Position numbers and translations under genes: made by a program. DNA of 64,000 bases from Actinomycetota bacterium (lineage in GTDB: Bacteria > Actinomycetota > UBA4738 > JBBDHU01), in assembly GCA_040880465.1 (NCBI GenBank), contig JBBDIK010000011.1, positions 103,843-167,842 of the forward strand. The letters are read 5' to 3'. Below are positions 1 to 39,216 of this stretch, piece by piece. Under the pieces are notes generated by a model. It saw nothing but the letters and a program-made list of their open reading frames with translations, was not told the DNA's origin and did no database searches. Positions within the stretch are counted from its first letter, which is position 1. The number at the start of each line of letters is the position of its first letter.

Positions 1-347
1 AGGTCTCGGACATCGCCATGCGCTGGGCCGAGGGGTACTCGTTCGACGCCGAGCAGCTGGCGGTCGAAGTCATCGAGCACGTCGGCCCCGGCGGGCATTT
101 CCTCGGCGAACCCCACACCCTGCAGCACATGCGTGACTTCTGGCGCTCCAAGGTCATGAACCGCCTGACCTGGGAAGATTGGGACGCGGCGGGACGACCC
201 GAGCCGTGGAAGGCCGCGGAAGCCGAGGTCCAGCGGATCCTCGCGGAACACGAACCGGAGCCGCTCCCCGAGGACGTCACGAAGGAGCTCGATCGCATCA
301 TGGATGCGTACGAGGCCGAGGCGATGGAGAACATGGAGGACGACTGA
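1..347 (+). CDS. C-terminal fragment of an MttB-superfamily (trimethylamine methyltransferase-like) methyltransferase. The gene starts left of the window.
   Basis: The open frame runs from the window edge to the stop at 345-347. The translated C-terminus (GGHFLGEPHTLQHMRDFW...) aligns with the C-terminus of the second MttB-like gene at 4607-6061 (GMYLESAHTMGHFREWLY...). The stop overlaps the ATG of the next gene by 1 nt. Confidence 0.7.
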   Translation, partial: VSDIAMRWAEGYSFDAEQLAVEVIEHVGPGGHFLGEPHTLQHMRDFWRSKVMNRLTWEDWDAAGRPEPWKAAEAEVQRILAEHEPEPLPEDVTKELDRIMDAYEAEAMENMEDD

Positions 348-1000
348 TGGCCACCGAAGAACAGATGTATGAACAGCTCAACAAGGGACTCAACGACGGC
401 GACGAGGCCAAGTCGCTCGAAGCCACGCACTGGCTGGTCGACAACGGCGTCAACCCCGTCGAGATCCTCGAGGAAGGCATGGCGAAGGCCATGTTCATCC
501 TCGGCGAACGCTGGAAGCGCGGCGAGGTCTTCCTCCCTGAGGTGGTCGTCTCGGCCGAGGTCTTCAAGAAGTGCAACGCGATCGTCGAGCCCGAGCTGGC
601 CAAGATGGGTGAGGCCAAGGCCTCCTCGCTGGTCGTCATGCTCACGGTGAAGGGCGACCTCCACGACCTGGGCAAGAACATGGTGGGCGCGATGCTCAAG
701 ACCTCAGGCTTCGAGGTGCACGACCTCGGCAAGGACGTTCCCACCGACAAGGTGATCGCTGCCGTCGAGGAGCTCAAGCCCGCCATCGTGGGGATGTCGG
801 CGCTGCTGACGACCACGGTCCCGCAACAGCAGGTCGTCATCAAAGCCCTCAAGAAGAACGGGCTGCGCGACAAGGTCAAGGTCATGGTCGGTGGCGCTCC
901 CGTAACCCAGGAGTGGGCCGATCAGATCGGCGCCGACGGCTACGCGCCCAGCGCTCCGGAGGCCGTCGAGATGGCGAAGCAGTTGATAGGCAAGGCCTAG
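347..1000 (+). CDS. Cobalamin-binding corrinoid protein (MtbC/MttC/MtgC-like)
   Basis: It has the B12-binding motif DxHxxG (GDLHDLGKN), the downstream SxL (MSALL) and GG (MVGGAP) motifs, and the N-terminal helical B12-binding_2 region. Start ATG at 347 overlaps the upstream stop (TGATG). The longer ORF from 179 is rejected because it would overlap the preceding gene. Confidence 0.85.
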   Translation: MATEEQMYEQLNKGLNDGDEAKSLEATHWLVDNGVNPVEILEEGMAKAMFILGERWKRGEVFLPEVVVSAEVFKKCNAIVEPELAKMGEAKASSLVVMLTVKGDLHDLGKNMVGAMLKTSGFEVHDLGKDVPTDKVIAAVEELKPAIVGMSALLTTTVPQQQVVIKALKKNGLRDKVKVMVGGAPVTQEWADQIGADGYAPSAPEAVEMAKQLIGKA

Positions 1001-1166
1001 GCAAGCCGCCCGAAACAGGTTGCGCTGTGGGCAACTTCGTCTCGAGCACGGGGAGCTGCCGGGGGGATGATGGATCCGCTCGCGGTCAGATGCTGTGACC
1101 CGAGGTCACGCTTCGTCATTCGAGGGGGTTCTCACACCCATGAACACCAGGTAAGATGGGCCTCCG

Positions 1167-1196
1167 GGTTCCCGGAACCAAGTTGACTTGAAGTCA
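1167..1196 (+). promoter_or_regulatory. Two adjacent perfect palindromes overlapping a putative -35/-10 promoter, just upstream of the methyltransferase operon. Candidate operator.
   Basis: GGTTCC-C-GGAACC at 1167-1179 and TGACTT-G-AAGTCA at 1184-1196. TTGACT at 1183-1188 is about 17 bp from CATAGA. This is an AT-richer patch in a 70% GC context, about 25 bp before the TTG start at 1219. Confidence 0.4.
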
Positions 1197-1218
1197 TAGA
1201 AGCCACGGGAGGAACGAG

Positions 1219-2091
1219 TTGGCAGAGACGATCCTTGAGGGGACGAACGGTCGCCAGACCGTCATCGGCCCCGGACATCCGTTCGTCATCATCGGCGAAC
1301 GCATCAACCCGACGGGTCGCGAGAAGCTCGGCGACGAGTTCGTGGCCGGCGAGTTCTCCCGGGCGCAGACTGACGCGATCGCACAGGTTGAAGCCGGAGC
1401 CACCGTTCTGGACATCAACGCGGGGATCCCCGGCAAGGACGAAACCGGGATGCTCTGCAGGGCGATCGAAGCCGTACAAGAGGTCGTGGACGTCCCGATC
1501 TGCATCGACTCCTCGACGTTCGAGTGCCTGGAGCCCGCCCTTGAGACCGTCAAGGGCAAACCGATCCTGAACTCGGTGACCGGCGAGGACGAGCATCTCG
1601 AGAAGGTCCTCCCGCTGGTCAAGCGATTCGGCGCAGCCGTCATCGGCATGGCCCACGAGGACTCGATCGAGCAGGACCCCGAGTTGCGGTTCAAGGCCGC
1701 CAAGAAGATCGTCCAGAAAGCCGAGGATCACGGCATCCCGCGTGAGGACGTGCTCATCGACCCACTCGCCATGCCGCTCGGCGGGATCCCCCAATCCGGT
1801 GAGATCCTGTTCTCGATCTGCCGCCGGATCCGCGACGAGCTGGACATCAATATGTCGTGCGGAGCGTCGAACATCTCGTTCGGACTCCCCGACCGGCACG
1901 GTATCGACGCCGCGTTCCTGCCCATGCTGATGATGGTGGGGATGTTCGCATCGATCACCAATCCGCTCGCCCACCACGTGCGTCGGGCGGTCTTGGCCGG
2001 CGACGTGCTGCTCAACACCGACACGATGTCCGTGCACTGGATCAAGTACTTCCGCGAACGCGCGGCGGCGATGGCCGACACCGAGGGATAG
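1219..2091 (+). CDS. Pterin-binding methyltransferase (methylcorrinoid:tetrahydrofolate methyltransferase of the MtgA/MtrH/AcsE/MetH pterin-domain family)
   Basis: TTG start preceded by a GGGAGGA RBS. The ERINPTG motif and DHPS-like TIM-barrel signature residues are present (DxNAG..., ICIDSS). Confidence 0.8.
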   Translation: MAETILEGTNGRQTVIGPGHPFVIIGERINPTGREKLGDEFVAGEFSRAQTDAIAQVEAGATVLDINAGIPGKDETGMLCRAIEAVQEVVDVPICIDSSTFECLEPALETVKGKPILNSVTGEDEHLEKVLPLVKRFGAAVIGMAHEDSIEQDPELRFKAAKKIVQKAEDHGIPREDVLIDPLAMPLGGIPQSGEILFSICRRIRDELDINMSCGASNISFGLPDRHGIDAAFLPMLMMVGMFASITNPLAHHVRRAVLAGDVLLNTDTMSVHWIKYFRERAAAMADTEG

Positions 2092-2116
2092 CGAGCGCCC
2101 GGAGAGAGGCACGCGG

Positions 2117-3958
2117 TTGAAGAAAGTCGAGGTCACCTACCAGCCCAGCGGCAAGGTCGCGCATGTGCCCGAGGGCACAACGGTCTTCAACGCCGCTCAC
2201 TGGGCCGGCCTGCCGATCGAATCCAGCTGCGGCGGGCGCGGCACCTGCGGCAAGTGCAGCGTCCAGGTCCTCGAAGGCGACTTCGCACCGACCCCGGCCG
2301 ACGCCCGCCATCTGACCGAGGCCCAGGTCGACGAAGGCTGGCGGATCTCCTGCCAGGCCGTCATCAACGGCGACGCGCTCTGTGACGTCCCTCGCCTCAT
2401 CTCCAACCCGAAGGCCGCCACGATGGGCGTCAACCGCTTCGTGCTGCTCGAGCCGAACGTCTGGAAGGGCGTCGTCGACATGACGCCGCCCACCCTCGAG
2501 GACGCACGGAGCCACGTGCGCCGGGTCCTCGACTTCCTCGAAGAAGAGGGTTGGGAAGCGAAGGTCGACACGGCCGTCTACGGTCCGCTGGCGAACCTGA
2601 TGACCCAGGTCGCTGAAGGGGACATCGATCAGATCACGGCCGTGACGGTCGAGGATCACTTCATCGCGGTGGAGGAGGGCGACACGACCGGCGAGATGTA
2701 TGGCGTCGCCCTGGACATCGGGACCACGACCGACGTCGCCACCCTCATCGATCTGCGCACCGGCGGCGCCGCGGCGGTCGCTTCTTCCATCAACCGCCAG
2801 GCCTCGTTCGGCGGCGACGTGATCGCCCGGATGGCGCACGCCATGAAGGGTGAGGAGCAGATCGAACAGCTCCGCGAGGCGGTGGTCGAGACCATCAACG
2901 ACCTGCTCGACCAGGTCTACGCGGAGGCCGGCGTCATGCGGGACCGCACCTACGAGATGGTCGTCGTCGGGAACGCCACGATGCTGCACCTGTTCCTCGG
3001 GGTCCGGCCGGATTCGATCGCCGTCTCCCCGTTCACGTCCACGTTCCTCGAGCCGCTGAACCTGCGGGCAACCGACGTCGGGGTCAACATCCACCCGCAG
3101 GGCCGCGTGCAGCTGTTCCCGTCCCTCGGGGCCTACGTGGGCGCCGACCTCGTCGGGGACGTGGTCGCCACCGGGCTCGCGCGCGAGGACACCAAGCGGC
3201 TCATCGTCGACGTCGGAACCAACGGCGAGATCATCATCGGCTCCGCGGACCGGATCATCGGCACCGCTGCACCGGCGGGCCCCGCGTTCGAGGGCGCCGA
3301 GATCCTGCATGGGATGCGCGCCACGGACGGCGCCATCGAGGGGATCACGCTGGGCGACGATGTCGAGCTGCAGATCATCGGCGGCAACGACCTGGAGGCG
3401 AAGGGTCTGTGTGGTTCAGGTCTCATCGATGCGGTCGCGCAGCTACGCCTCGTGGGGATCATCAACGAGAAGGGTGGCTTCAAGAGCCCCGAGGACCTCG
3501 CCGGGCATCCACTGGCGGACCGGGTCACCGAGCACGAGGGCATCAAGGCCTTCCGCTTCGCAGAGCACGTCCTGCTCACCCAGAAGGACATCCGCGAGAT
3601 GCAGTTCGCCAAGGGAGCCATCGCGACGGGCGTCGAGACGGCGATGCGCGAGATCGGCTGGTCCGCCGGCGACCTCGACGAGGTGTGCCTCGCAGGCTCC
3701 TTCGGCAGCTACATCAACCCCGAGAGCGCGAAGATCATCGGCCTGGTCCCGGCGGTCCCGGTCGAGAAGATCAAGGCCATCGGCAACGCCGCCAGCGAAG
3801 GTGCGAAGATGGCGCTCATGTCGTTCCGCGAACGTGAGGTGGCGTTCGAGCTCCCGACCTGGATCGAGTACCTGGAGCTGTCCGGGGTCGAGGACTTCAA
3901 CGACCGTTTCATCCAGAACCTCGGCTTCCCCGAACTCGAGGCGGTCTCGAGCCCATGA
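2117..3958 (+). CDS. ramA: RamA-type corrinoid reductive activase: N-terminal 2Fe-2S ferredoxin domain plus an ASKHA ATPase domain
   Basis: The N-terminus has CGGRGTCGKC plus a downstream Cys (plant-type 2Fe-2S). The large C-terminal region has actin-like ATPase motifs (DIGTTT, DVGTNGEI, GSFGS). TTG start with GGAGAGAGG RBS. Stop overlaps the next ATG (ATGA). Confidence 0.8.
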   Translation: MKKVEVTYQPSGKVAHVPEGTTVFNAAHWAGLPIESSCGGRGTCGKCSVQVLEGDFAPTPADARHLTEAQVDEGWRISCQAVINGDALCDVPRLISNPKAATMGVNRFVLLEPNVWKGVVDMTPPTLEDARSHVRRVLDFLEEEGWEAKVDTAVYGPLANLMTQVAEGDIDQITAVTVEDHFIAVEEGDTTGEMYGVALDIGTTTDVATLIDLRTGGAAAVASSINRQASFGGDVIARMAHAMKGEEQIEQLREAVVETINDLLDQVYAEAGVMRDRTYEMVVVGNATMLHLFLGVRPDSIAVSPFTSTFLEPLNLRATDVGVNIHPQGRVQLFPSLGAYVGADLVGDVVATGLAREDTKRLIVDVGTNGEIIIGSADRIIGTAAPAGPAFEGAEILHGMRATDGAIEGITLGDDVELQIIGGNDLEAKGLCGSGLIDAVAQLRLVGIINEKGGFKSPEDLAGHPLADRVTEHEGIKAFRFAEHVLLTQKDIREMQFAKGAIATGVETAMREIGWSAGDLDEVCLAGSFGSYINPESAKIIGLVPAVPVEKIKAIGNAASEGAKMALMSFREREVAFELPTWIEYLELSGVEDFNDRFIQNLGFPELEAVSSP

Positions 3959-4626
3959 CTACCGGCACTCGGGCCAGCGACGGACACACCGCGGCCGGAG
4001 ATGCCCGCCCGGAGAACCGACCCACGGTCAGTTTGCTGACGTGCGGGGCCCTCTCAAAGGAGGTGCTCGAAGTCGTCGAGCGTCGCGGCTGGGACATCGA
4101 CATCCACGGCGTTTCGGCCCTGCACCACCTGGATCCGCCCAAGATCGCGCGCGACGTCGACCGCAAGCTCGCCGACCTGACCCAGCGCTACGAACGGGTC
4201 GTCATCGTCTACGGGGACTGCGGAACCGGCGGCGCGCTCGACTCGGTCATCGCGAAGTACCCGGCCGCCCGCCCAGCCGGCGTTCACTGCTACCAATGGT
4301 TCCTGCAAGAGGATCCGCAGGACATCGTCGACAACCGGACCGGGACGTACTTCCTCACCGACTGGCTGATCCGCAACTGGGATCTGGCGGTGATGAAGGG
4401 CCTGGGACTCGACCGGTACCCGCAACTCAAGGACGTGTACTTCGGGAACCTGACGGACGTGCTATATCTGCGCCAGAGCGCCGAGCCGAACGCCGAACTG
4501 GAGGCCAAGGCCCGCGAGATCGCCTCGTACATGGGCCTTGCCATCGAGGTCAAGGACACGGGCGTCACCCCCCTGGAAGCACTACTCGTACCTCTCGTGG
4601 AGGAAGATGCCGATGTTCACGCCTGA
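3955..4626 (+). CDS. DUF1638-family protein, a family commonly encoded next to corrinoid methyltransferase genes
   Basis: ATG at 3955 overlaps the ramA stop. Sequence features (..LLTCGAL..VIVYGDCGTGG..) fit DUF1638. Its 3' end overlaps the next gene by 20 nt. Confidence 0.65.
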   Translation: MTTGTRASDGHTAAGDARPENRPTVSLLTCGALSKEVLEVVERRGWDIDIHGVSALHHLDPPKIARDVDRKLADLTQRYERVVIVYGDCGTGGALDSVIAKYPAARPAGVHCYQWFLQEDPQDIVDNRTGTYFLTDWLIRNWDLAVMKGLGLDRYPQLKDVYFGNLTDVLYLRQSAEPNAELEAKAREIASYMGLAIEVKDTGVTPLEALLVPLVEEDADVHA

Positions 4627-6061
4627 TGACGCACCGAAGGTCCTGACGGAGGAGCAGCTCGACACGATCCACGAACAGGCGTTGACGATCCTCGAGGACG
4701 TGGGGATGGACATCCTCTGGGACCCGGCCCTCGAACTCCTCGGCGCGGAGGGGAACAAGGTCGAGGGCACGCGCGTGCGCTTCGACCGCGCGTGGCTGAT
4801 GGAGATGGTGGCGAAAGCCCCCACGACGTTCTCCGTACGCCCCCGGAATCCGGAGAACGAGATCATGGTTGGCGATGGGAGCCTCGTGCTCCTTCCGGTC
4901 GGGGGTTCGCCCTTCGTCTCCGATCTGGACCGAGGCAGGCGAAGCGGCACGATCGCCGACCACGACGAACTGATCAAGCTCGCTCACGCGACCGACATCA
5001 TCACCTGCCTGCAGAGCGCGACGGTCGAGGCGCAAGACCTGCCGGTCATGACGCGGCACATGGACATGGACTATTCGATCCTGCGGAACTCTGACAAGGC
5101 CTATGTCGCCTACGGCGGCACCGGGTACAAGGTCCGCGACAGCATCGAGATGGCCGCCATCGCGTGCGGCGGGCGTGCCGCCATCGAGGAGATCCCGGGC
5201 ACCATGGTCGTGATCAACCCGATCAGCCCGCTGGTGTGGGATGAGCGGATGTCCGACGCACTGATCGCGACGGCCGAGGCCAACCAGGGTCTGATCGTGA
5301 CCCCGTTCCTGCTGGCCGGAGCGACCGCCCCGGTCTCGATCTCGGGCTCGCTCTCGATCCAGGTCGCGGAGGCCCTCTCCGGGACGGCGATCGCCCAGGC
5401 CGTTCGGCCAGGAACGCCGTGCATGTACGGCTCGTTCTTCACGCCGCTGGACATGCGTACCGGCGCTCCGGCGTTCGGCTTGCCGCAGGGCGTCCTGGGA
5501 ACGCTTGCTGGCGCCCAGCTCTCGCGACGGTACGGCCTTCCGTACCGCGGCGGCGGGGCCCTCGCGTCGGGCAACGCCGTCGACGGACAGGCAGCGTCCG
5601 AGAGCGCGAACTCCCTCTGGGCGACGTTCCTCGCGGCGAGCGACTTCGTCCTGCACGCGGCCGGCTGGCTGGAGGGCGGACTGACCGCATCGTTCGAGAA
5701 GTTCGCGCTGGACGTGGAGATGTGCAGGGAGTTCCTCAAGACCAAGGAGGGCATCGGGTTCACCGACGAGGAGCTCGCACTCGATGAGATCGAGCACATG
5801 GGCCCGGCCGGCATGTACCTGGAATCTGCCCACACGATGGGCCACTTCCGCGAATGGCTCTACATGAGCCCCCTGTTCACGACTCCGGACTTCAACACGT
5901 GGCAAGCGATGGGCGAAGAAGGACTCGACCGGCGCGCGAACGCGATGTGGAAGCAGATCCTCGAGTCCTACGAGGACCCCGGGATCGACGACGCCGTCGA
6001 CGAGGAACTCCGCGAGTTCATCGCCAAACGCAAGGAGGAAACGGTCGACGACGACGAGTGA
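4607..6061 (+). CDS. MttB-superfamily methyltransferase, second paralog, non-pyrrolysine type
   Basis: Uninterrupted 485-codon frame with no internal TAG. ATG at 4607 follows a GGAGGA RBS. N- and C-terminal regions are typical of the TMA-methyltransferase/MttB family (TIM barrel). The ORF-track start at 4538 is rejected for lack of an RBS. Confidence 0.85.
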   Translation: MPMFTPDDAPKVLTEEQLDTIHEQALTILEDVGMDILWDPALELLGAEGNKVEGTRVRFDRAWLMEMVAKAPTTFSVRPRNPENEIMVGDGSLVLLPVGGSPFVSDLDRGRRSGTIADHDELIKLAHATDIITCLQSATVEAQDLPVMTRHMDMDYSILRNSDKAYVAYGGTGYKVRDSIEMAAIACGGRAAIEEIPGTMVVINPISPLVWDERMSDALIATAEANQGLIVTPFLLAGATAPVSISGSLSIQVAEALSGTAIAQAVRPGTPCMYGSFFTPLDMRTGAPAFGLPQGVLGTLAGAQLSRRYGLPYRGGGALASGNAVDGQAASESANSLWATFLAASDFVLHAAGWLEGGLTASFEKFALDVEMCREFLKTKEGIGFTDEELALDEIEHMGPAGMYLESAHTMGHFREWLYMSPLFTTPDFNTWQAMGEEGLDRRANAMWKQILESYEDPGIDDAVDEELREFIAKRKEETVDDDE

Positions 6062-6073
6062 CATGATGTTCCG

Positions 6074-6307
6074 GTGAGTCCATTCCCGACGGACCCCGAC
6101 GTCTCGACCGTTCATCTCGGCGCGTTCACCCACGAACACGCCGACGAGATCGCCGGCAAGCTCGAGGGGGCCGGCATCTCGTGGTGGTACAAGCAGCCGG
6201 GGTTCATCAGCCAGATCTGGGAGATGGGCCAGGTTCACCTCTTCGTCGACCGCGACCGGCTGACGGATGCTCAAGCGTTCGCTCGCGAGGTGCTCGGCGA
6301 GGGCTAG
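6074..6307 (+). CDS. Small hypothetical protein (77 aa)
   Basis: GTG start 13 bp after the MttB stop. No clear RBS and no recognisable domain. Confidence 0.3.
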   Translation: MSPFPTDPDVSTVHLGAFTHEHADEIAGKLEGAGISWWYKQPGFISQIWEMGQVHLFVDRDRLTDAQAFAREVLGEG

Positions 6308-6395
6308 GGCGAGACGCAGCGGCCCTCCCCATCACCACAAGCCTCAGCGCCGAGACCAGCTCAGCCGGCCCCGGCGCCCAGGGAAGTGAGCCCTG

Positions 6396-6596
6396 TTACG
6401 CGGCTTCGCGCTTCTTGCGCTTTCCGCGCGGTGTGTAGCTGTGCACGGGTTCGTGCTGCCAGCAGAAATCCCAACGGTTGTACATCGACAGCTTGGTCCC
6501 GCAGCCAGGCGCCGCGCAGACCCGATCGTCGGTGTACGTGCGGTTGGGCCGCGGGAGCGACCGGACGTGCACGCCTCGGTAGACCGATTCTGCCAT
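6396..6596 (-). CDS. Small Cys/His-containing basic protein (66 aa), possibly a zinc-binding protein
   Basis: Good RBS (GGAGAG) 6 nt before the ATG. It has three Cys plus His and a lysine/arginine tail. A long 5' leader of about 360 bp lies upstream. Confidence 0.45.
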   Translation of the reverse strand: MAESVYRGVHVRSLPRPNRTYTDDRVCAAPGCGTKLSMYNRWDFCWQHEPVHSYTPRGKRKKREAA

Positions 6597-6882
6597 CGTT
6601 TCTCTCCTCTTCGAGAGGTATCGGCCCCCCCGGGCGACTCCTGAGCCCCGTGAGGACCTTCTTCACAGTGTTCGAACACCGGAGGCGTCCGGTTCGTTCC
6701 CAGGACGAGAAGGAAACCTCTGCAGGCATCGCACCTTCGGGAACGTGCGGAGGCGCAGAAGCGGACGTTTCCGCAGCTCAGAGCCCATCTTCGGTTGGGC
6801 GGCCAACAGGACGATCGGCGGCGGCGATCCGAGGCCTGTCCCAGGAAGCGACCGAGTCGGCGTTGTTCGCGACCTTCCTGAG

Positions 6883-6900
6883 TGTCAGGAATCTGACACC
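6883..6900 (-). terminator. Perfect hairpin GTGTCAG-GAAT-CTGACAC, 58 bp downstream of the crotonase gene. Candidate factor-independent terminator or operator.
   Basis: Inverted repeat with 7-bp arms and a 4-nt loop. No U-tract follows. Confidence 0.25.
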
Positions 6901-6957
6901 TCGCTCGCAGGCGTACGCGGCCGTCGCCCTTACAAAGGCCTTTCCGACTCCTTGCCC

Positions 6958-7737
6958 CTATCGGCCCTCGAAGACCGCCTTGCCGGGACCGTCCTTCAAG
7001 AGCGATCTCATCCCCGTCTTCTGATCCTCGGTGCCGAAGAGCTGGACGAAGTTCTGCCGCTCGACCTCCTGGCCCTCGCGTCGGGTCGTGTGCAGGCCCT
7101 CTCCGATCGATCGCTTGGCCGCTGCCAGCGCCACCGTCGGCCCCTTCGCGAACCGACGGGCATCCTCGACCGCCTTCTCGTAGACCTCCTTGACGGGGAC
7201 AACGCGGTCGACCATGCCGAGCTGCAGAGCCTCATCGGCCTTGACCTGGCGTCCGCTGAAGATGATGTCCTTCGCGCGCGATACCCCGATCAGAAGCGGG
7301 AGCCGCTGGGTCCCGCCGGCGCCGGGGATGATCCCGAGCAGGATCTCGGGGAGCCCGATCTTGGCGTTGTCCGCCGCATACCTGAGGTCGGCCGCAAGCG
7401 CGAGCTCGTACCCCCCGCCGAGCGCGTATCCATTGATCGCCGCGATCGTGACCTTCGGCAGATCCTCGACGACGTCGAGCGCCGTCTGCAGTTTGACGAT
7501 GTGCGGCCAGACGTCGTCGGGCGTCCGGTCGACCATCTCGGCGACGTCCGCGCCAGCGGCGAAGATCCGAGGCCCCCCCCAGATCACGACGGCACCGATA
7601 TCGTCGCGCCCGCCGGCCTCGCGGGCGACGTCCGTCAACTCCTCAGCGACCTGGCCGCTGATGGCATTCAGCTTCGGCCGGTCGAGCCGGATCGTCCCGA
7701 CGCCATCGTCAACCTCGAGCCGAACGAACTCTCCCAT
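6958..7737 (-). CDS. Enoyl-CoA hydratase/isomerase (crotonase family)
   Basis: Crotonase fold motifs (AAINGYALGGGYELALAADLR, GLPEILLGIIPGAGGTQRL). ATG at 7737 with GAGGAGG RBS. Confidence 0.85.
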   Translation of the reverse strand: MGEFVRLEVDDGVGTIRLDRPKLNAISGQVAEELTDVAREAGGRDDIGAVVIWGGPRIFAAGADVAEMVDRTPDDVWPHIVKLQTALDVVEDLPKVTIAAINGYALGGGYELALAADLRYAADNAKIGLPEILLGIIPGAGGTQRLPLLIGVSRAKDIIFSGRQVKADEALQLGMVDRVVPVKEVYEKAVEDARRFAKGPTVALAAAKRSIGEGLHTTRREGQEVERQNFVQLFGTEDQKTGMRSLLKDGPGKAVFEGR

Positions 7738-7768
7738 CGATCCTCCTCGAACATACCTCTGACCGGTG

Positions 7769-7833
7769 TGCAGGCCCTGCAATCCTTCCAGACCGGGACC
7801 CGGCCTTCATGTCGCTGATGCAAGGCCTTGCAG
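7769..7833 (+). promoter_or_regulatory. Two palindromes in the divergent promoter between the crotonase gene and the Fur-family gene. The second matches the TTGCAA-N4-TTGCAA architecture also found at the metal-ABC promoter.
   Basis: TGCAGG-C-CCTGCA at 7769-7781 and aTGCAA-GGCC-TTGCAg at 7818-7833, the latter overlapping the regulator start region. Confidence 0.4.
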
Positions 7834-7851
7834 ATGCTACACTCCGTGCCC

Positions 7852-8283
7852 ATGGCCGACACCGACATCCTCGACCGGCTCCGCGAACGCGGCCTCCGCA
7901 TGACCCCCCAACGCCGGGCGATCGTGAGCGAGATCATGCGCTCGAAGGGGCATATCAACCCGGCCTCGATCACCCGGAAGGTGCAGACGCAGATGCCCGG
8001 CGTGAACGCGTCAACCGTCTACCGCACGCTCACGACCCTCGAAGAGATCGGCGTCATCTCCCACGCACACCTGGAATCCGGCGCCGAATACCACCGGGCC
8101 GAGGAGGCCGAGCACGTGCACCTGATGTGCTCGAACTGCGGTTCCGACGACGAGCTCTCCACGAAGGAAGCCGATGCCCTGGCCGGCCTGGTCCGGCGGC
8201 ACCGGGGGTTCGAGCCGGACCTCACGCACTTCGCGATCAGCGGCTCCTGCGCCCGCTGCAAGGAACGAGCCGGCCGACCCTAG
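7852..8283 (+). CDS. zur: Fur-family metalloregulator, Zur-like by gene context
   Basis: Fur DNA-binding helix region (MTPQRRAIV), HAH motif, and two CxxC pairs forming a structural Zn site. Alternative in-frame starts at 7828 (TTG) and 7834 (ATG). It is convergent with the metal ABC transporter. Confidence 0.75.
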   Translation: MADTDILDRLRERGLRMTPQRRAIVSEIMRSKGHINPASITRKVQTQMPGVNASTVYRTLTTLEEIGVISHAHLESGAEYHRAEEAEHVHLMCSNCGSDDELSTKEADALAGLVRRHRGFEPDLTHFAISGSCARCKERAGRP

Positions 8284-9131
8284 TCGATGGGGTCTGCCAT
8301 GGCGGAGTCCGGCAGGCGCCGCCCTCGAACCTCCGAGATCAGGAATGCGACGGTGAACACCGCAGCTGCCGTCAGCACGATCGCCGGACCCGAGGCCCAA
8401 TCCAAGAAGTACGAAAGGTACGTCCCCACCAGGCCACAGGCAGCGCCGGTCGCGACCGAGATCCAGAGCATCCGGGAGAAGCTGTCGGTCAGAAGTCGGG
8501 CGATGACCGGTGGGATCACGAGCATCCCGGCGATCAGCGTGACGCCGACGACGTTCATGGTGGCTGCGATGGTCGCCGCCAGCACCATCGCCAAGAGGGC
8601 GTCCATCCATGCCGTCCGAACGCCGGACACCTCGGCAACCTCAGGATCGAACGCGGTGAACAAGAGCTGGCGATAGCGAAGGGCGACGACCACGACGCAG
8701 AACACCGCCACTCCGACCACGACGAGTACGTCCCCGAGGGTAACGCCGAGGACGTTCCCGAAGAGCACCGCTTCGAAGTTCTGGCGGAACGTCCCCCCTT
8801 TGGAGATGATCACCAGCCCCACCGCGAACGCGGCGATGGTCACGACGCCGATCGCTGCATCCGCACCGATCGTTCGCCGGCGGGCGATGCGCTGGATCAG
8901 CAGCGCGGCGAGCAACCCGGATACGCCGGCAGCGACGTAGAAGTTGATCGAAAGCGCGGCTCCGACGACCGCACCGCCGAAGATCGCGTGGGACAAGCCA
9001 TGTCCGATGTAGCTCATCCCGCGGAGCACCACGTAGGTCCCAACGAGACCGCAGAGTGCCCCCGCGAGCACCGCCACGATGATCGCGTTCCGGAAGAACT
9101 CGTAGGTGAACGGCTCAACCAGGGTGCTCAT
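8280..9131 (-). CDS. ABC-3 family metal (Zn/Mn) transporter permease (ZnuB/TroCD-like)
   Basis: Polytopic ABC-3 permease signature. ATG at 9131 overlaps the upstream ATPase gene by 17 nt. Confidence 0.85.
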   Translation of the reverse strand: MSTLVEPFTYEFFRNAIIVAVLAGALCGLVGTYVVLRGMSYIGHGLSHAIFGGAVVGAALSINFYVAAGVSGLLAALLIQRIARRRTIGADAAIGVVTIAAFAVGLVIISKGGTFRQNFEAVLFGNVLGVTLGDVLVVVGVAVFCVVVVALRYRQLLFTAFDPEVAEVSGVRTAWMDALLAMVLAATIAATMNVVGVTLIAGMLVIPPVIARLLTDSFSRMLWISVATGAACGLVGTYLSYFLDWASGPAIVLTAAAVFTVAFLISEVRGRRLPDSAMADPID

Positions 9132-9921
9132 GATGCTCCCGTCCGTGGGCGGCGACGCCCGTGGCGGCTTCCTCGATCTCGGGGTAGTGCTCGACGACGA
9201 CGGGCATCCCTCCGTGCTGGAGCACCTCCAGGGGTGCTCCATACGTCCGCTCCAGCACCTCCGGAGTGATGACGTCCTCGGGACGCCCGACGGCGATGAC
9301 CTCCCGGTTCAGGCAGACGAGCCGCGGCAGGTGCGCGGCGATGCCGTTCAGGTCATGGGTCGTGAGGACGATCGCCAGTCCGTCGTGATGGAGTTCGTGG
9401 ATCACGTGCATGACGTCGTGGCGGGTCCGCACGTCCACGCCACTGGTGGGCTCGTCGAGCAGCAGCAGCCGCGGCTGCCGGATCATCGCCCGAGCGATGA
9501 ACACGCGCTGCTGCTGTCCGCCGGAGAGCTCCCGGATATGCCGCCCACCGAGTCCGGCGAGTCCGAGACGCTCCAGCACCTCGTCGGCCTCTCGACGCTC
9601 GTCCCTCGTGTGCCAGGGTGTGACGCGTCCCTCGACACGGGCCATGAGGACGGCTTCGCGCACGGTCACCGGGAAGTACCAGTTCACCGTCTCGACCTGC
9701 GGCACGTACCCGATCGTCGCGCGAGGCGCTCGGGTGACCGCCCCACCCGCCGGACGGACGGCGCCGGCGACGGCCCGGAGCAGGGTCGTCTTCCCCGACC
9801 CACTCGGTCCGACGATCCCGATGAACTCCCCCTCCGGGATCGCCAGGTCGATATCCACCAGAACGGGATCGCGATCGTAGCGACAGGTCACGCCATCCAG
9901 GCGGACCAGGTCCTCAGCCAC
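9115..9921 (-). CDS. Metal ABC transporter ATP-binding protein (ZnuC-like)
   Basis: Walker A GPSGSGKTT, ABC signature LSGGQQQRV, Walker B LLLLDEP. Confidence 0.9.
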   Translation of the reverse strand: MAEDLVRLDGVTCRYDRDPVLVDIDLAIPEGEFIGIVGPSGSGKTTLLRAVAGAVRPAGGAVTRAPRATIGYVPQVETVNWYFPVTVREAVLMARVEGRVTPWHTRDERREADEVLERLGLAGLGGRHIRELSGGQQQRVFIARAMIRQPRLLLLDEPTSGVDVRTRHDVMHVIHELHHDGLAIVLTTHDLNGIAAHLPRLVCLNREVIAVGRPEDVITPEVLERTYGAPLEVLQHGGMPVVVEHYPEIEEAATGVAAHGREHHEHPG

Positions 9922-9933
9922 TGCACCCTCCGC

Positions 9934-10944
9934 TCATGATCGGTAGACCGCGTCCTCGGTCTCAACGACGTTCGACGGATCGATCCTTTCGAACGCTGAT
10001 GCGTCACCACCCAGCGCCTCCATGAAGGTGCTGTAGTCGAACAGGAGGAGGCCAGCCAAGCTGTGCTCGGGTGCACCTGCCTCGCCAGGGAGGTCGTCGT
10101 CCCGAAGGTCATCGACGTACCTGGCCCCCGTCTCATCGGCGATCTGCTCCAGGACCGGACTAGGGAACACCTCGGACCCGAAGATGGCCGGAACCCCGGT
10201 CGACCGCACCTGGTCGATGAGTTCCGCGACCTCTTGAGCCGTGGGTTCCGCGAGATCGGCCGGTTGGACGGCACCGATGATCTCCCAGCCGTACTCGCGC
10301 GCGAAGTACGGGAACGAATCGTGATAGGTCAGCAGCTTGCGGTACTCGGGTGGCACGGTCTCGGTGACCTCACGAACGGCGACATCGATCTCGTCGAGCT
10401 GACCGACCAGCGCTCCGTAGTTCGCGGCGAAGTCCGCCTCCTTCGCCGGGTCCAGCCGGGAAAGCTCGTCCTTGATGATCTCGGCGTACCGCTTTGCATA
10501 GGCGGGATTCGTCCATAGGTGGGGGTTCGGCGCTCCCCCTGCCTCCGGGAAGCTGAAATCGTAGATGTACTCGTCCGGGGTGATGGTTCTGCTGCCGAGT
10601 TCGACCAGCGGCACGTCATCCCGAAGGTTCGCGCGGGCAAGTTCCATCGTCGGTTCCTCGAGATGGAGCCCATTGACGAACATGACGTCCGCATCCTCGA
10701 TCACCGCTGCGTCCGAGGGTGCCGGCTCGAACGTGTGACTGTTCGTTCCCTCGGGAACGAGACCCGTAACGATGACATCGCTCCCGCCAACGTTCTGTAC
10801 GAGGTTCGTGATCGGCGAGACCGTGGTTACGACGTGGATCCGCCCATCTTCCGGCGGCACGCCACCATCCTTACCCCCCGGCGAAGCACAGGCAGCGGCG
10901 AGCACTGTGCACAGCACGAGACTCGAGATCGGGACCTTGGGCAT
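9934..10944 (-). CDS. Metal ABC transporter substrate-binding lipoprotein (ZnuA/TroA-like)
   Basis: Lipobox LAAAC after the signal peptide, TroA-like fold with a His-rich region. ATG at 10944 with GGAGG RBS. Confidence 0.8.
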   Translation of the reverse strand: MPKVPISSLVLCTVLAAACASPGGKDGGVPPEDGRIHVVTTVSPITNLVQNVGGSDVIVTGLVPEGTNSHTFEPAPSDAAVIEDADVMFVNGLHLEEPTMELARANLRDDVPLVELGSRTITPDEYIYDFSFPEAGGAPNPHLWTNPAYAKRYAEIIKDELSRLDPAKEADFAANYGALVGQLDEIDVAVREVTETVPPEYRKLLTYHDSFPYFAREYGWEIIGAVQPADLAEPTAQEVAELIDQVRSTGVPAIFGSEVFPSPVLEQIADETGARYVDDLRDDDLPGEAGAPEHSLAGLLLFDYSTFMEALGGDASAFERIDPSNVVETEDAVYRS

Positions 10945-11009
10945 CGGTTCGGACCTCCGTCGGATAGGCGCGCAACCGATCGGCACGCCAACCCTCATCC
11001 TACCGCCTA

Positions 11010-11027
11010 GTTGCAATCTATTGCAAC
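11010..11027 (-). promoter_or_regulatory. Candidate Zur/Fur box GTTGCAA-TCTA-TTGCAAC in the promoter of the metal ABC operon
   Basis: AT-rich palindrome in a GC-rich background, about 65 bp upstream of the SBP start codon. Same TTGCAA-N4-TTGCAA architecture as 7818-7833. Confidence 0.45.
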
Positions 11028-12019: not shown

Positions 12020-13321
12020 CTAGGCCGCAGGCGGGGCGGCCGGCGTCGAAGCCAGCTCAACGACCCTCAGCGGCCGCCCAAGCCACGCTCGACCCCCGCC
12101 GAGCATCGCGAACGTCACCACGAGACCGATCGAGTTCACCACCGTGAGCGGCCACAAGGCGTACTGCTGACCGAGGACGGCAACCCCCAACCCACACATC
12201 GCTCCGGAGAGGAAGCCCCAGACCGGGTGACCACGCAGCCAGACGTGCCGATCTTGCCTGGCGGCGGAAGGGATCGCCGCGGCTCCGCCGCCGGCACCGG
12301 CGTAGATCCCGATCCCGCCGAAGATGAACGCGCCGAGGATGGCGAGCAGGAGGCATCCCCCGTCTCCCATCCCACGCGTGATTGGGTCGGGCTTCAGCTT
12401 CCCGTGAGCCCAGTTGTCGAGGATGCCCATCCTTCCGGGTATGGGCACTTCACCGGGCGCCTGGTTGGCCGAAGCGAACTGCTCCTCCTCGGGCTGTGTC
12501 ACAGTTTGGGCTTCCTCGAACGACGGCCCCTTCGCCTTGGGCTTGCGGATACCGGTCGAAAGAACCACGCCCCCCGCGCCGATCAGCGTCGCCGCCGCAG
12601 CCGCCTGACCCGCGATACCGGCAAGTGGGTTCCCGTCGAGCTTGATGTAGCCATCGGCCTTACATGACCAGCCCGAGCCCGATGCGGTCGCATCCACGCG
12701 GTACAGGCCCGTCCCGTACCGGAGGTACTTATCCACGCTGACCGAGCCACTCCATCCGCTCTGATCCCCACGGTTCAACTCTTGGGTGACCCCACCGATG
12801 GGGTCGATGAGGTGGATGGTGACGAAAGCGGTCCCCCCAGATGGCGCGATCCCCGTTCCCGTCGGTGCGAGGGCCTCCACGGCGACGGAACCCCCCTTCT
12901 GGACGACCAAGGGCTGGGTGCTGGTCATCTGTTCGGGGGCCATGCCGTTCACCGAGACCACGCAACCCCCGACCGTGGATTGCGCAGCTGCGAAGGGGGC
13001 GGTCAGTAGCAGGAACAGCCCCGCTAGCATCGATGTGGCAGCGAGGGTCCTCCACGAGTTCGGCCGCAGGCCGCGTCCAGGGGCGACCGGGTCGCCGATC
13101 CGATGACCCGGCGCGAACCTCCGGGCGAGCGGGTTGCAGCGGAGGAGCCGCCATGCGGTCATGCCCGCTGCCGACAGGAACGAGCGCGTGCGGAACGCCT
13201 CGATCGCGAAGCCGGAACATCCCGGCTCGAATCGACAGGTGCCAGAGAACCGGCCGGCCGCAGCATTCCGGTAGCGCTCGACCGCTCGGATCGCTGCTCG
13301 ATTCATCCGGCCGGGCCGCAC
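12020..13321 (-). CDS. Fusion protein: N-terminal YidD domain (membrane protein insertion efficiency factor) plus a ~350-aa C-terminal membrane and extracytoplasmic region
   Basis: YidD signature CRFEPGCSGFAIEA...RLLRCNP in the first 60 aa. Several predicted TM segments follow. GTG at 13321 with GGAAGGAGG RBS; an alternative ATG lies at 13306. Confidence 0.6.
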   Translation of the reverse strand: MRPGRMNRAAIRAVERYRNAAAGRFSGTCRFEPGCSGFAIEAFRTRSFLSAAGMTAWRLLRCNPLARRFAPGHRIGDPVAPGRGLRPNSWRTLAATSMLAGLFLLLTAPFAAAQSTVGGCVVSVNGMAPEQMTSTQPLVVQKGGSVAVEALAPTGTGIAPSGGTAFVTIHLIDPIGGVTQELNRGDQSGWSGSVSVDKYLRYGTGLYRVDATASGSGWSCKADGYIKLDGNPLAGIAGQAAAAATLIGAGGVVLSTGIRKPKAKGPSFEEAQTVTQPEEEQFASANQAPGEVPIPGRMGILDNWAHGKLKPDPITRGMGDGGCLLLAILGAFIFGGIGIYAGAGGGAAAIPSAARQDRHVWLRGHPVWGFLSGAMCGLGVAVLGQQYALWPLTVVNSIGLVVTFAMLGGGRAWLGRPLRVVELASTPAAPPAA

Positions 13322-13385
13322 GGGTCCTCCTTCCATCGACGAGGAGCCCCATCATGGCAAGGGCGGGCGCGAGCCGCAAGGACTT

Positions 13386-14168
13386 GTGCCGCAAGCGGAC
13401 TCGCTTCATTATTGGTGGAACCTCGGAGCATGGGAGCACGCGGTGAAGAACTTCCGCATCGCGGCGGGCGGTATCAGCGCCATCGTCGCCATCGTCGTCC
13501 TGATCGCCCTCCTGACCGGCGATGACGCGTCGCTCGGCGGCGGCGAGGCTCCGCCGCCGGAGCCACCACCACCGGAAACCACCGCACCGGCGACGGAGGC
13601 GCCCGTTCCGACCGATACGCCGACGACGGACTCCACCGGAACGCCGCCGACCTCCACCGAGACACCGGATCCGTTCGCCACACCGACCCCGATCGTCGGC
13701 GTCCCCGTCACGATCAGCCGAGCCGTCGCCTCCGGCTCGGCGCCCAACGTCACGGGCGCCGGTGGAGAGACCATCACCTATGGCCCCGAGTTGGCGATCG
13801 ACGGTCGGAACGACACGGCGTGGTGCGTTCCTGGCCCGGGTCTCGGCGAGTTCATCACCGTGAAGTTCAACCAGCCCGTTTCCGTCACCCGGATCGAGAT
13901 CCTTCCGGGGTACGACAAGATCGACGGCTACACCGGCCAGGACCGCTTCGAGGAGAACCGCAAGATCACGGACGTGACCTACGGGCTGCGCGGCGCGGTC
14001 TACGGTGATCACTTCAGCGGGAACCTGCGGCGTCTGAATCCGCTCAACCTCCCGGAGGCCACCTCGACGAAGTTCATCAAGATCGAGCCGCAGGCGACGA
14101 CCGAACCAACACGGCCGAGTGGCGACTACACCTGCATCTCCGAGATCGCCGTCGAGGGGGCGGGCTGA
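13386..14168 (+). CDS. Membrane-anchored secreted protein with a Pro/Thr-rich linker and a discoidin (F5/8 type C, galactose-binding-like) domain
   Basis: N-terminal TM anchor, PT-rich linker, then the pattern AIDGRNDTAWCVPG...EFITVKFNQPVSVTRIEIL typical of discoidin domains. An alternative GTG start lies at 13443. Confidence 0.55.
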   Translation: MPQADSLHYWWNLGAWEHAVKNFRIAAGGISAIVAIVVLIALLTGDDASLGGGEAPPPEPPPPETTAPATEAPVPTDTPTTDSTGTPPTSTETPDPFATPTPIVGVPVTISRAVASGSAPNVTGAGGETITYGPELAIDGRNDTAWCVPGPGLGEFITVKFNQPVSVTRIEILPGYDKIDGYTGQDRFEENRKITDVTYGLRGAVYGDHFSGNLRRLNPLNLPEATSTKFIKIEPQATTEPTRPSGDYTCISEIAVEGAG

Positions 14169-14872
14169 TGTTCTGTCCGAGCTGCGGATCGCACGCACGG
14201 GACACCGATACCTTCTGCCGGACCTGCGGAACGCGGGTCCGGGACGACGCCGTTCCCGCCTCGCCACCAGCCGTGACACCACCGACCCAGCCGGTGGCCC
14301 AGCCGGTGGCACCGCCCGCCGCGACACCGATCGCCTCGCAACCCGCCGCGACACCCGCGGCGCAACAACCGCCTCTTGCCCAGCCCGCCGCGGCCGCACC
14401 GGTGACGGCCGAGATCCAACCCGTGGCACCCGCTGCTCCGGCCGGCGGCCTGCTCCAGCCGTGGCAGGCCTACGCGGGAGCCATGGCGTGCGGCGTGACG
14501 GCGGCCAGCACCGCTCTCTCCTGGGTCGGCATCCCGGGACTGGGCAGCATCGACGGATTCGGCGTCCCCCTCGCCGCCCTCTTTACATCCGGGGCAACAC
14601 CGGGAGGGATCGGCTTCGGCGTCCTCGTCCTCCTGCTCGCCGGGTTCGGACTGGTCGGATGCCTCCTGGCGCCCACGATGCGGATCGTGTCCGCCGGACT
14701 CCTCCTCGCCGGAGCGACGTGCACCGCACTGATGGCGTTCTTCCTCGTCCGGGTCACCATGCTCCTGGAGGGCGTCTCGTTCTTCGACATCATGGGGGTC
14801 GGGGTGTACCTCGCGACGATCGGTGCGATCGCGACGCTCGTGATCGGGATCCTGCTCCGACGGACCACCTGA
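14168..14872 (+). CDS. Zinc-ribbon domain membrane protein
   Basis: N-terminal CPSC...CRTC zinc ribbon, a Pro/Ala-rich linker, and 4 C-terminal TM helices. The ATG overlaps the upstream stop (TGATG). Confidence 0.55.
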   Translation: MFCPSCGSHARDTDTFCRTCGTRVRDDAVPASPPAVTPPTQPVAQPVAPPAATPIASQPAATPAAQQPPLAQPAAAAPVTAEIQPVAPAAPAGGLLQPWQAYAGAMACGVTAASTALSWVGIPGLGSIDGFGVPLAALFTSGATPGGIGFGVLVLLLAGFGLVGCLLAPTMRIVSAGLLLAGATCTALMAFFLVRVTMLLEGVSFFDIMGVGVYLATIGAIATLVIGILLRRTT

Positions 14873-16740: not shown

Positions 16741-17150
16741 CAGTCCACCGACAGTAGCCGGTTCAGTCGGGCCACTTTGGCCGGGTGGCCCACGAGTCCT
16801 TTGACCCGAAGCCGCCGGGAACGCAGTTTCTTCAGGATCACGCGGCCGTCTCGGTGGAAGGCACTCGGGAACCCGAAGAGCAAGGGAACCGAGGACAGCT
16901 CGAGCAGCGTGCCGGCATCGGTCCGGACACGTACCTCTGCACTCGGATGCGCGCCGTTGGTGAGGACCGCGTCGCCGTGCCCGAGGCGCAGGGTGGCGGC
17001 GAGCCCGATGTCGTGGGCGGCGATCGCGTAGGAGGCGGGGCGGGCGAGGTACCGGCTCCGCGCGGGTTCGCGCTCGAGATTGGCGCGGATCAGGTCGCCA
17101 AGGATCGACACGAGTCCGTTCGGCTCGGCGTCGGGGAGGGACACGCTCAC
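16740..17150 (-). CDS. SCP2 (sterol carrier protein-2)-like domain protein
   Basis: C-terminal pattern GRVILKKLRSRRLRVKGLVGHPAKVARLNRLL resembles the SCP2 motif. GTG start overlaps the ADH stop (GTGA). Confidence 0.45.
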   Translation of the reverse strand: MSVSLPDAEPNGLVSILGDLIRANLEREPARSRYLARPASYAIAAHDIGLAATLRLGHGDAVLTNGAHPSAEVRVRTDAGTLLELSSVPLLFGFPSAFHRDGRVILKKLRSRRLRVKGLVGHPAKVARLNRLLSVD

Positions 17151-23211: not shown

Positions 23212-23244
23212 GTGTCAGACCCCTCGGTAGGGTGCGCAGCGAGG

Positions 23245-23489: not shown

Positions 23490-27517
<4,028 letters not shown>

Positions 27518-27536
27518 GGGGTTGCTCCTCGTTTCC

Positions 27537-28698: not shown

Positions 28699-28708
28699 CG
28701 CTGCCTCC

Positions 28709-29749
<1,041 letters not shown>

Positions 29750-39215: not shown

Positions 39216-39216
39216 G

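Follow-up and report, generated by a model that had tools for sequence, protein, structure and literature searches.

A compact operon with non-pyrrolysine MttB homologues, predicted to encode a corrinoid-dependent methyl-transfer system, in an Actinomycetota bacterium

Results

Gene content and organization

The window analyzed in this study is a stretch of 64,000 nucleotides (nt) of the Actinomycetota contig JBBDIK010000011.1, and coordinates are given on its plus strand unless a locus label is attached. From its edge to position 6307, the window carries a run of same-direction plus-strand genes, recognized as open reading frames (ORFs) with high third-position GC, and we describe these genes here as the candidate operon of a corrinoid-dependent methyltransferase system acting on tetrahydrofolate (THF). 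Families were assigned by profile searches against Pfam and NCBIfam, and the curated NCBIfam cut-offs served as the equivalog test. The first ORF (3-347) comprises the C-terminal 114 codons of an MttB-family gene, paralog B (Pfam MTTB, PF06253, 72 bits, profile positions 396-494), and is followed by the gene for a corrinoid (B12-binding) protein of 217 amino acids (aa) (347-1000; B12-binding_2, 54.6 bits; B12-binding, 101.4 bits). Beyond an intergenic gap of 218 nt, read directly from the sequence (1001-1218), lie the genes for a methyl-corrinoid:THF methyltransferase of the MeTr/MtgA/MtgD type, hereafter MT-II (1219-2091; 290 aa with a TTG start; Pterin_bind and NF005719), a RACo-type ATP-dependent reductive activase (2117-3958; 613 aa; Fer2, RACo_linker, Raco_middle and RACo_C_ter), a DUF1638 protein (3955-4626; 223 aa; PF07796), and a further MttB-family protein, paralog C, which is present at full length (4613-6061, with an alternative ATG at 4607; 482 aa). 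A conserved ORF of 77 codons (6074-6307), without a Pfam or NCBIfam match, completes the run.

The stop codon of paralog B overlaps the start of the corrinoid protein gene (TGATG, 345-349), the activase and DUF1638 genes overlap in the sequence ATGA (3955-3958), and the DUF1638 gene overlaps that of paralog C by 14-20 nt (4607/4613-4626); the DUF1638 gene is translationally coupled at both of its ends. The MT-II and activase genes are separated by a gap of 25 nt (2092-2116), and a ribosome-binding site, GGGAGG, lies 6 nt ahead of the TTG start of MT-II at 1219. A preliminary description of this DNA had proposed a same-direction, partly coupled gene set of six parts, and this proposal is borne out by Pfam or NCBIfam matches for each part and by three overlapping junctions. 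All of the profile matches are strong, and the observation of this set of genes is confirmed at a level far above chance. Every ORF of the operon is intact, with a third-position GC content (GC3) of 0.84-0.91 that is similar to that of the remaining window, and the overall GC content of the operon is not distinct from that of the window.

The upstream part of the operon was recovered from a metagenome contig of 6.6 kb, L002, which was found via the exact sequence of the corrinoid protein. Over 3,904 nt, this contig matches the window with 100% identity, and it extends 2,674 nt farther upstream. It contains the full gene of paralog B (L002 1546-3021; 491 aa), the 5′ part of which lies upstream of the window, and a further MttB-family gene, paralog A, upstream of B and outside the window (L002 65-1546; 493 aa); the junction between A and B and that between B and the corrinoid protein gene are both overlapping. 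Because L002 supplies the rest of B as well as A, the operon holds at least three MttB paralogs (A, B and C) rather than the two counted in the preliminary description. L002 stops 64 nt upstream of A within a GA-rich repeat; its positions 1-60, just upstream of A, comprise a short direct repeat, GGAGCAGGCCC, followed by a (GA)n microsatellite, where the contig ends.

The preliminary description had also let the module reach position 6307. The terminal 77-codon ORF starts 12 nt past paralog C, and its ratio of nonsynonymous to synonymous substitution rates (dN/dS) against locus L074 is 0.16. It is kept in L074 and also in locus L073 (60% identity), where the four preceding genes are missing, and it belongs to the conserved chromosomal backbone, outside the module.

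The 218-nt gap has a fold energy equal to that of shuffled sequence (z = -0.06), and an Rfam scan of the operon and L002 returned nothing at gathering score, with a tRNA at 23246-23319 as the sole match. On these two grounds, a riboswitch or other RNA element in the operon was rejected. Promoter and terminator scans of positions 1-7900 yielded counts at chance level, with none in the 218-nt gap; therefore, the boundaries of the transcription units could not be set from such scans.

Corrinoid protein, MT-II, activase and DUF1638 protein

The corrinoid protein combines PF02607 and PF02310 and carries the His-on motif DLHDLG at residues 104-109, SAL at 151 and GG at 185-186. Its nearest solved relatives are 1Y80 (E 9e-53) and the methylamine-type protein MttC (7XCN_M, E 3e-49), whereas its matches to MetH domains have E values of 1e-28 or weaker. 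It scores below the NCBIfam cut-offs of TIGR02370 (204.2 vs. 215.3 bits) and of the MtgC models NF047995 (210.5 vs. 310) and NF047996 (204.5 vs. 370), and it is best regarded as a member of the family that is the equivalog of no named member. MT-II exceeds the cut-off of NF005719, the model for methyl-THF:corrinoid/Fe-S protein methyltransferases (289.8 vs. 259 bits), and matches Pfam Pterin_bind with 95 bits. It is not a subunit of carbon monoxide dehydrogenase/acetyl-CoA synthase (106.8 bits vs. a cut-off of 370), and its nearest solved relative is the MeTr of Carboxydothermus hydrogenoformans (2YCK, E 3e-32).

The activase consists of an N-terminal plant-type [2Fe-2S] ferredoxin domain, a linker, a middle domain and an ASKHA ATPase domain. 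The cluster ligands Cys38, Cys44, Cys47 and Cys79 form the motif C-x5-C-x2-C-x31-C, and the ASKHA phosphate motifs are DIGTTT at 203 and DVGTNGE at 368. In the preliminary description this protein was called RamA-type. However, it aligns over its full length to the RACo structure 3ZYY (residues 3-605 vs. 3-620, E 1.3e-96), whereas the RamA model TIGR04270 gives 115.6 bits against a cut-off of 500 and covers the ASKHA region only (residues 195-566). Past residue 89, cysteines occur only at 432 and 524, and the activase therefore has no C-terminal cluster motif; with 415 bits against a cut-off of 800, it is also not an AcsV equivalog. The end-to-end match to 3ZYY, the low RamA and AcsV scores and the lack of a further cysteine cluster together assign the protein to the RACo ("ferredoxin + DUF4445") type.

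The DUF1638 protein matches its Pfam model over profile positions 6-161 of 161 (88.4 bits vs. a gathering score of 27), and no solved relative was found by sequence. Cys30, His58, Cys89 and Cys112 are invariant among 39 homologues, a pattern suggestive of a possible metal or redox site. Wherever a related locus carries both genes, the DUF1638 gene stands directly upstream of the homologue of paralog C; the two overlap in L070, L071, L072 and L074-L076 and are adjacent without overlap in L042. According to fitness data from Phaeobacter, both the Fer2/DUF4445 protein and DUF1638 are tied to corrinoid reactivation (PMC5764234).

MttB paralogs and their substrate sites

Paralog C matches PF06253 with 541 bits over profile positions 32-498 of 500, which places it as a full-length member of the family, and precomputed annotation assigns A and B to PF06253 as well. 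Paralog C is 100% identical to the database protein P0001, and the NCBI labels for proteins identical to those of the operon are "trimethylamine methyltransferase family protein" and "DUF1638 domain-containing protein". None of the three paralogs passes the equivalog test for true trimethylamine methyltransferases (TIGR02369, cut-off 525), their scores being 358.3 (A), 370.3 (B) and 279.5 bits (C), with A and B matched over their full length. Each of the three genes ends in a TGA and contains no internal stop and no in-frame TAG, in agreement with the preliminary description, which had reported no in-frame TAG for C. The pyrrolysine (X) of the Methanosarcina barkeri MttB structure 7XCL aligns with a Gly in A (HMMER), and the same position, read against A in a MAFFT alignment, is an Ala in B. 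The MttB homologues of the operon are members of the non-pyrrolysine branch of the superfamily.

The paralogs fall into two very different groups. A and B are 58% identical to one another, whereas either is approximately 28% identical to C. Paralog C is 40-42% identical to Desulfitobacterium hafniense MtgB (9YCE/2QNE) and to the Sinorhizobium meliloti homologue 4YYC (E ~5e-110), and its clade is sister to 4YYC in a neighbor-joining tree. A and B form a separate deep clade that is 24-30% identical to MtgB, 4YYC and the pyrrolysine-type MttB alike; identity to M. barkeri MttB is 23-28%. The references of this tree were MtgB, 4YYC and MttB, transcribed from PDB alignments; it did not include MtcB, MtpB, MtyB and MthB, the first three of which the preliminary description had named for such a phylogeny.

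According to the structure and mutagenesis of MtgB, Y97 and F356 hold the quaternary nitrogen of glycine betaine by cation-pi contacts, R312 and H348 hold its carboxylate, and Ala or Leu substitutions at Y97 and F356 raise the Km several hundred-fold (PMC13080624). The Arg is reported to be conserved across the members of the MttB superfamily with known functions, the substrates of which are all acid-bearing, and the His less consistently so (PMC13080624, PMC12155760). We counted the residues at these positions in 119 homologues of the paralog C clade and 117 of the A/B clade. The R312 position is Arg in all 119 of the former and in none of the latter, which have Ser, Ala, Cys, Val and others; similarly, the H348 position is His in 119/119 proteins of the C clade and in 0/117 of the A/B clade, where Thr, Asn or Ser is found. 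A and B themselves have Val or Ser at the first of these positions and Thr or Ser at the second, and a profile-profile alignment agrees that the A/B clade does not have the Arg/His pair. The aromatic pair of MtgB is found in none of the three paralogs. The Y97 position is Gly in A, B and C, in the entire C clade (119/119) and in the A/B clade, and the F356 position is Gly in C (116/119 of its clade), Asp in A and Ser in B, with Asp, Ser or Ala across the A/B clade. The motif HAAGWLEGG is common to the C clade and 4YYC. In the A/B clade, the Trp of the motif SDWQAG is invariant and a Cys nearly so, and MtgB and the C clade differ from this clade at both positions.

The preliminary description had pointed to characterized relatives that demethylate quaternary amines. 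"Quaternary-amine demethylase" is a reasonable designation, on the evidence of these residues, for paralog C only, which keeps the counterparts of R312 and H348; because the acid-binding Arg/His pair is missing from A and B, the same function cannot be extended to them. Paralog C most likely acts on an acidic, betaine-like quaternary amine that is bound unlike glycine betaine in MtgB. Thus, C would not be a canonical MtgB, and A and B would act on a different methyl donor. The substrates as such cannot be read from the sequence, a point on which we agree with the preliminary description.

The A/B clade has so far been found only in uncultured bacteria, namely Actinomycetota, some Bacillota/Syntrophomonadaceae, and metagenome-assembled genomes (MAGs) labelled Chloroflexi, Planctomycetaceae and Aminicenantes. 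A scan of one genome per species returned 67 loci with A/B-type relatives, all from uncultured genomes or single-cell assemblies, and these were mostly labelled Actinomycetes/Actinomycetota (55-60% identity) or Bacillota/Syntrophomonadaceae (~42%). When the ORFs within 7 kb of A/B homologues were compared across 68 loci and 17 recurrent clusters were annotated, no transporter or catabolic theme emerged as a clue to the substrate. The recurrent neighbors are lineage-specific and include a HAD hydrolase, a BadF-type ATPase, a nucleotidase, a class IV aminotransferase, XdhC, TatC and others, and at some loci a gene for a Pat-like GNAT/acyl-CoA synthetase follows the A/B-type gene. In one Actinomycetota MAG, a sarcosine-oxidase-alpha-like gene of 879 aa with 2Fe-2S, FAD and GCV_T domains (L042 1335-3974, minus strand) adjoins a cluster of the order MttB-MttB-corrinoid protein-DUF1638-MttB, and it is the only neighbor that points to methylated glycines. 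A link to haloalkane systems was rejected; CdmB and the Mec proteins lie outside the MttB family, being UroD-superfamily members or corrinoid proteins (PMC13222342, PMC9768040). The idea of HgcA-MttB docking (PMC12484752) was judged irrelevant here.

Related loci and selection

The closely related locus L074 comes from an NCBI MAG and is approximately 88% identical to the window at the nucleotide level. In order, this site carries a divergent flavodoxin gene, a remnant of B of 138 codons, the genes for the corrinoid protein, MT-II, RACo, DUF1638 and C, the 77-codon ORF and a 66-codon ORF, and then enoyl-CoA hydratase, Fur, MeaB and PrsW genes that match the window; A is absent, as is most of B. 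The B remnant (L074 6050-6466, plus strand) is still open and has a dN/dS of approximately 0.10 against the window, which indicates either that the deletion is recent or that the fragment is still constrained. Locus L073, with approximately 74% nucleotide identity, has the same flanks around three A/B-type MttB genes and a corrinoid protein gene, and it has neither the MT-II, RACo, DUF1638 and C genes nor any remnants of the four. In L070, where the homologue of C is 74% identical, the order corrinoid protein - MT-II - RACo - DUF1638 - C occurs in a different context. This cassette recurs in L070 (56-74% protein identity) and in L074-L076, and an A/B-type MttB gene followed by a corrinoid protein gene recurs in L030, L031, L042 and L073.

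The 218-nt gap marks the boundary between the part of the L073 type (MttB A/B and corrinoid protein) and the block of four genes that is missing from L073, and positions 1007-1095 of the window could not be aligned to L074. From these comparisons, the operon of the window looks like the union of two arms around one corrinoid protein at a site that varies among relatives, and we take the module to be a variable insert at a fixed chromosomal site of this actinobacterial lineage. The dN/dS values against L074 are 0.05-0.10 for all five module genes and 0.05-0.17 over every gene compared; the low values of the module genes demonstrate that they are maintained by purifying selection.

A flavodoxin gene stands in divergent orientation just upstream of an A/B-type MttB gene or its remnant in L073 (6127-6579, minus strand), L074 (5405-5833, minus strand) and L003 (9326-9820, minus strand), and a flavodoxin is a plausible electron donor for corrinoid reactivation. 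From these relatives, a divergent flavodoxin gene, and possibly a third A/B-type MttB gene, would be predicted upstream of paralog A.

Chromosomal context

The housekeeping neighborhood reported in the preliminary description is confirmed. The window holds the atp operon with subunits a, c, b, delta, alpha, gamma, beta and epsilon (22822-29990, minus strand), a thrB-like GHMP kinase, a thrC-like PALP enzyme and a homoserine dehydrogenase, as well as prfA, prmC, rho, transaldolase, MeaB, PrsW and a MurA-like gene. At the 3′ end lies a lysA-like Orn/DAP decarboxylase ORF (62252-63892, minus strand) with a C-terminal GNAT acetyltransferase domain (residues ~386-523); its residue 1 already corresponds to profile position 21, and therefore the real start is probably farther upstream. 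The glyA gene (SHMT), which the preliminary description had connected to THF recycling, is indeed present within the ORF 41450-43342 (minus strand), but it lies 35 kb from the module on the opposite strand among housekeeping genes, and no functional link was found. This ORF has 630 codons with the SHMT domain from residue 218, and the true start is probably well downstream.

Several other features of the window were recorded. A conserved ORF of 66 codons (6396-6596, minus strand) is rich in Cys and His (CxxC ... CxxH), has no family match, is 72% identical in L073 and occupies the same position in L074. A gene for a Fur-family regulator (7828-8283, plus strand) adjoins genes for an ABC-3 permease, an ABC ATPase and a ZnuA-type binding protein (8280-11016, minus strand), which together resemble a Mn/Zn-type transporter; the slot of this transporter holds a NicO nickel/cobalt transporter in L074 and nothing in L073, and thus represents a second variable spot nearby. 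Between the atp operon and the glycosyltransferase/glyA region lies a polyamine-type cluster (30533-40188) that includes a Pot-like ABC transporter, a PLP decarboxylase, a SAM-dependent methyltransferase, an arginase-family enzyme and a class III aminotransferase, the last in an ORF of 719 codons with the domain only from residue 319. Four ORFs of 391-664 codons on the minus strand (12729-14429, 16108-17283, 19464-21458 and 52204-53532) have no Pfam match at E <= 1e-5, and only 19464-21458 passes a strict coding-composition filter.

Discussion

We consider it likely that this locus encodes a working corrinoid-dependent system in which methyl groups are transferred from methyl donors to THF. 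The preliminary description had proposed a self-contained substrate:corrinoid:THF system with its own ATP-dependent activase, and all of the part families and motifs that such a system needs were found, including strong MTTB matches, the His-on DLHDLG motif of the corrinoid protein and the Fe-S cysteine ligands of the activase. By analogy with characterized homologues, from which we infer in which direction the methyl group flows, what DUF1638 does and which substrates are used, paralogs A, B and C (MT-I) would bind methylated substrates and methylate the corrinoid protein (347-1000) in its Co(I) state; this protein probably is the single common methyl carrier of the operon. MT-II (1219-2091) would then transfer the methyl group from CH3-Co(III) to THF, yielding methyl-THF. 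When the cobalt is accidentally oxidized to Co(II), the RACo-type activase (2117-3958) would restore Co(I) with ATP and an electron delivered via its [2Fe-2S] cluster, and the DUF1638 protein (3955-4626) may help in this reactivation. Paralog C would take an acidic, betaine-like quaternary amine, and A and B a different methyl donor.

Several observations weigh against this reading. The corrinoid protein and the activase score under every NCBIfam equivalog cut-off, and the genes could form two transcription units separated by the 218-nt gap. No transporter, dimethylglycine/sarcosine oxidase, metF or folD adjoins the operon among the ORFs of the window that were scanned, and these ORFs yielded neither metF nor a gene for a betaine transporter or a methylglycine oxidase; the context of a pathway is therefore missing. 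Moreover, most A/B-type homologues elsewhere do not have an adjacent corrinoid partner, which is present in few of the 67 loci.

A different assignment of the same genes also deserves consideration. The corrinoid protein, the pterin methyltransferase, RACo and DUF1638 may mainly, or also, constitute a split cobalamin-dependent methionine synthase in which the methyl group passes from methyl-THF to the corrinoid protein and then to homocysteine, with an MtgE-like PF02574 subunit encoded elsewhere and the MttB paralogs as optional feeders. The same four families constitute the split MetH core and its reactivation in Phaeobacter inhibens and Ruegeria pomeroyi (PMC5764234, PMC12478193), and L074 keeps this core though its A/B genes are deleted. 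In L071, furthermore, the DUF1638-MttB(C) pair is not accompanied by its own corrinoid protein, and a full-length MetH is encoded 2 kb away. However, the operon and the approximately 50 window ORFs scanned yielded no homocysteine methyltransferase gene (PF02574), and MttB genes are located on both sides of the core and translationally coupled to it. The corrinoid protein is nearest to the methylamine and quaternary-amine types (205-211 bits to MtgC models and E 3e-49 to MttC, compared with 1e-28 or weaker for MetH), and L073 keeps the MttB genes and the corrinoid protein without MT-II. We therefore regard a role of the core in methionine synthesis, and the route from methyl-THF to homocysteine that it implies, as unlikely, and demethylation of methylated donors remains the preferred reading of the operon.

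It is very improbable that the MttB homologues are trimethylamine methyltransferases, whether pyrrolysine-requiring or pyrrolysine-free. Their matches to TIGR02369 reach 279-370 bits, the JGI labels homologues "trimethylamine--corrinoid protein Co-methyltransferase", and the Arg/His pair for acid binding is missing from A and B in the same way that MttB itself does not have the Arg. These scores are nevertheless far under 525, the identity to M. barkeri MttB is low, and the pyrrolysine position is occupied by Gly (A) or Ala (B), whereas pyrrolysine is held to be necessary for the activation of methylamines (PMC13080624). The pyrrolysine-requiring form of this enzyme is refuted outright, as no in-frame TAG exists. 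Finally, the suggestion of an island in decay or of recent acquisition, without present function, which draws on the varying content of the site among three related genomes (only a remnant of B in L074 and four genes missing from L073), can be set aside as extremely improbable in view of the intact ORFs, the GC3 values, a GC content that does not stand out from that of the window and the dN/dS values of 0.05-0.17.

The preliminary description held that such systems are known mainly from anaerobic Firmicutes and archaea, and this no longer stands. The same kit, consisting of MttB-family proteins, MtgC, a pterin-binding MtgD, a RamA-like Fer2/DUF4445 protein and DUF1638, has been genetically characterized in aerobic Ruegeria and Phaeobacter (PMC12478193, PMC5764234), in which the carrier and the pterin enzyme have a further role in methionine synthesis, MtgC and MtgD being bidirectional (PMC5764234, PMC12478193). 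The present locus shares with the system of R. pomeroyi strain DSS-3 and with the split MetH of P. inhibens all five protein families, the occurrence of the PF06253 MT-I in several paralogs and the use of a single corrinoid protein for several MttB paralogs, and its paralog C is allied to the alphaproteobacterial homologue 4YYC by both the tree and the HAAGWLEGG motif. Unlike in Ruegeria, where the parts are scattered (SPO1863, 2041, 2108, 2134, 2160, 2162), they are located here in a single operon, and neither an MtgE nor a metF2 partner was seen in the operon or the scanned window ORFs. The host also differs, an Actinomycetota MAG instead of Ruegeria or Phaeobacter, and the operon additionally carries MT-I enzymes of a second, very different clade (A/B). 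The corrinoid protein described here scores best to MtgC and methylamine-type models from anaerobes, whereas the Ruegeria MtgC is reported to be CmuA-like, a comparison made by description only.

The logic of MT-I, corrinoid protein and MT-II with an ATP-dependent activase is also that of D. hafniense MtgB/MtgC/MtgA and of Eubacterium limosum MtpB, MtcB, MtyB and MthB, which have a corrinoid protein in common, with an MT-II and RamQ (PMC13080624, PMC12155760). Similar to these Firmicutes quaternary-amine systems, the operon employs a non-pyrrolysine MttB-family MT-I, and C is 40% identical to MtgB with R312 and H348 kept. In contrast to MtgB, C has Gly at both of the cation-pi positions, and A and B lack R312 and H348; furthermore, the DUF1638 gene is inside the operon here, and the host phylum is different. 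The activase resembles the RACo of C. hydrogenoformans (3ZYY, 4C1N) in its co-linear full-length match, its four-domain architecture and its [2Fe-2S] cysteine ligands, but it is encoded in a methylotrophic methyltransferase operon and not in an acetyl-CoA synthase cluster. With Methanosarcina MttB/MttC/RamA (7XCL/7XCN), the locus shares the MT-I superfamily and the corrinoid-protein family; it differs in having no pyrrolysine codon, a predicted acceptor that is THF, via a pterin-binding MT-II, and not coenzyme M, and an activase without the RamA architecture.

Uncultured Actinobacteriota are likewise represented among the known hosts. According to the survey of Stordalen Mire, Actinobacteriota MAGs encode and express mtxB genes, and bacterial mttB homologues occur there with and without pyrrolysine (PMC10805028). 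The likeness to these MAGs, which carry corrinoid-dependent methyltransferase genes, is one of description; the calls in that survey are made at the survey level, and the parts of that source cited here mention neither the operon architecture nor the A/B clade nor DUF1638. Therefore, the locus is not a new kind of system but a well-preserved further example of a described type, known from aerobes and from uncultured Actinobacteria alike. Modest novelty lies in the gathering of all parts in one compact operon, in the joining of a betaine-type MttB and the uncharacterized A/B clade, which lacks the acid-binding pair, on one corrinoid protein, and in the variable content at a fixed site.

We further raise, tentatively, the possibility that A and B represent an uncharacterized MttB clade that, if its loss of the Arg and the His reflects the choice of substrate, demethylates a non-acidic donor and in this operon feeds the same corrinoid protein as a betaine-type enzyme. 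If this were true, non-acidic methyl donors would be a substrate class new for pyrrolysine-free MttB proteins. With all of the parts for demethylation adjacent, the operon offers a convenient single locus for reconstitution in vitro, and it could serve to address the role of DUF1638 and the substrate of the A/B clade. The locus is further evidence of a widespread use of methylated compounds by corrinoid-dependent enzymes among uncultured Actinomycetota, which is relevant to how osmolytes such as glycine betaine are turned over and to the competition with methylotrophic methanogens.

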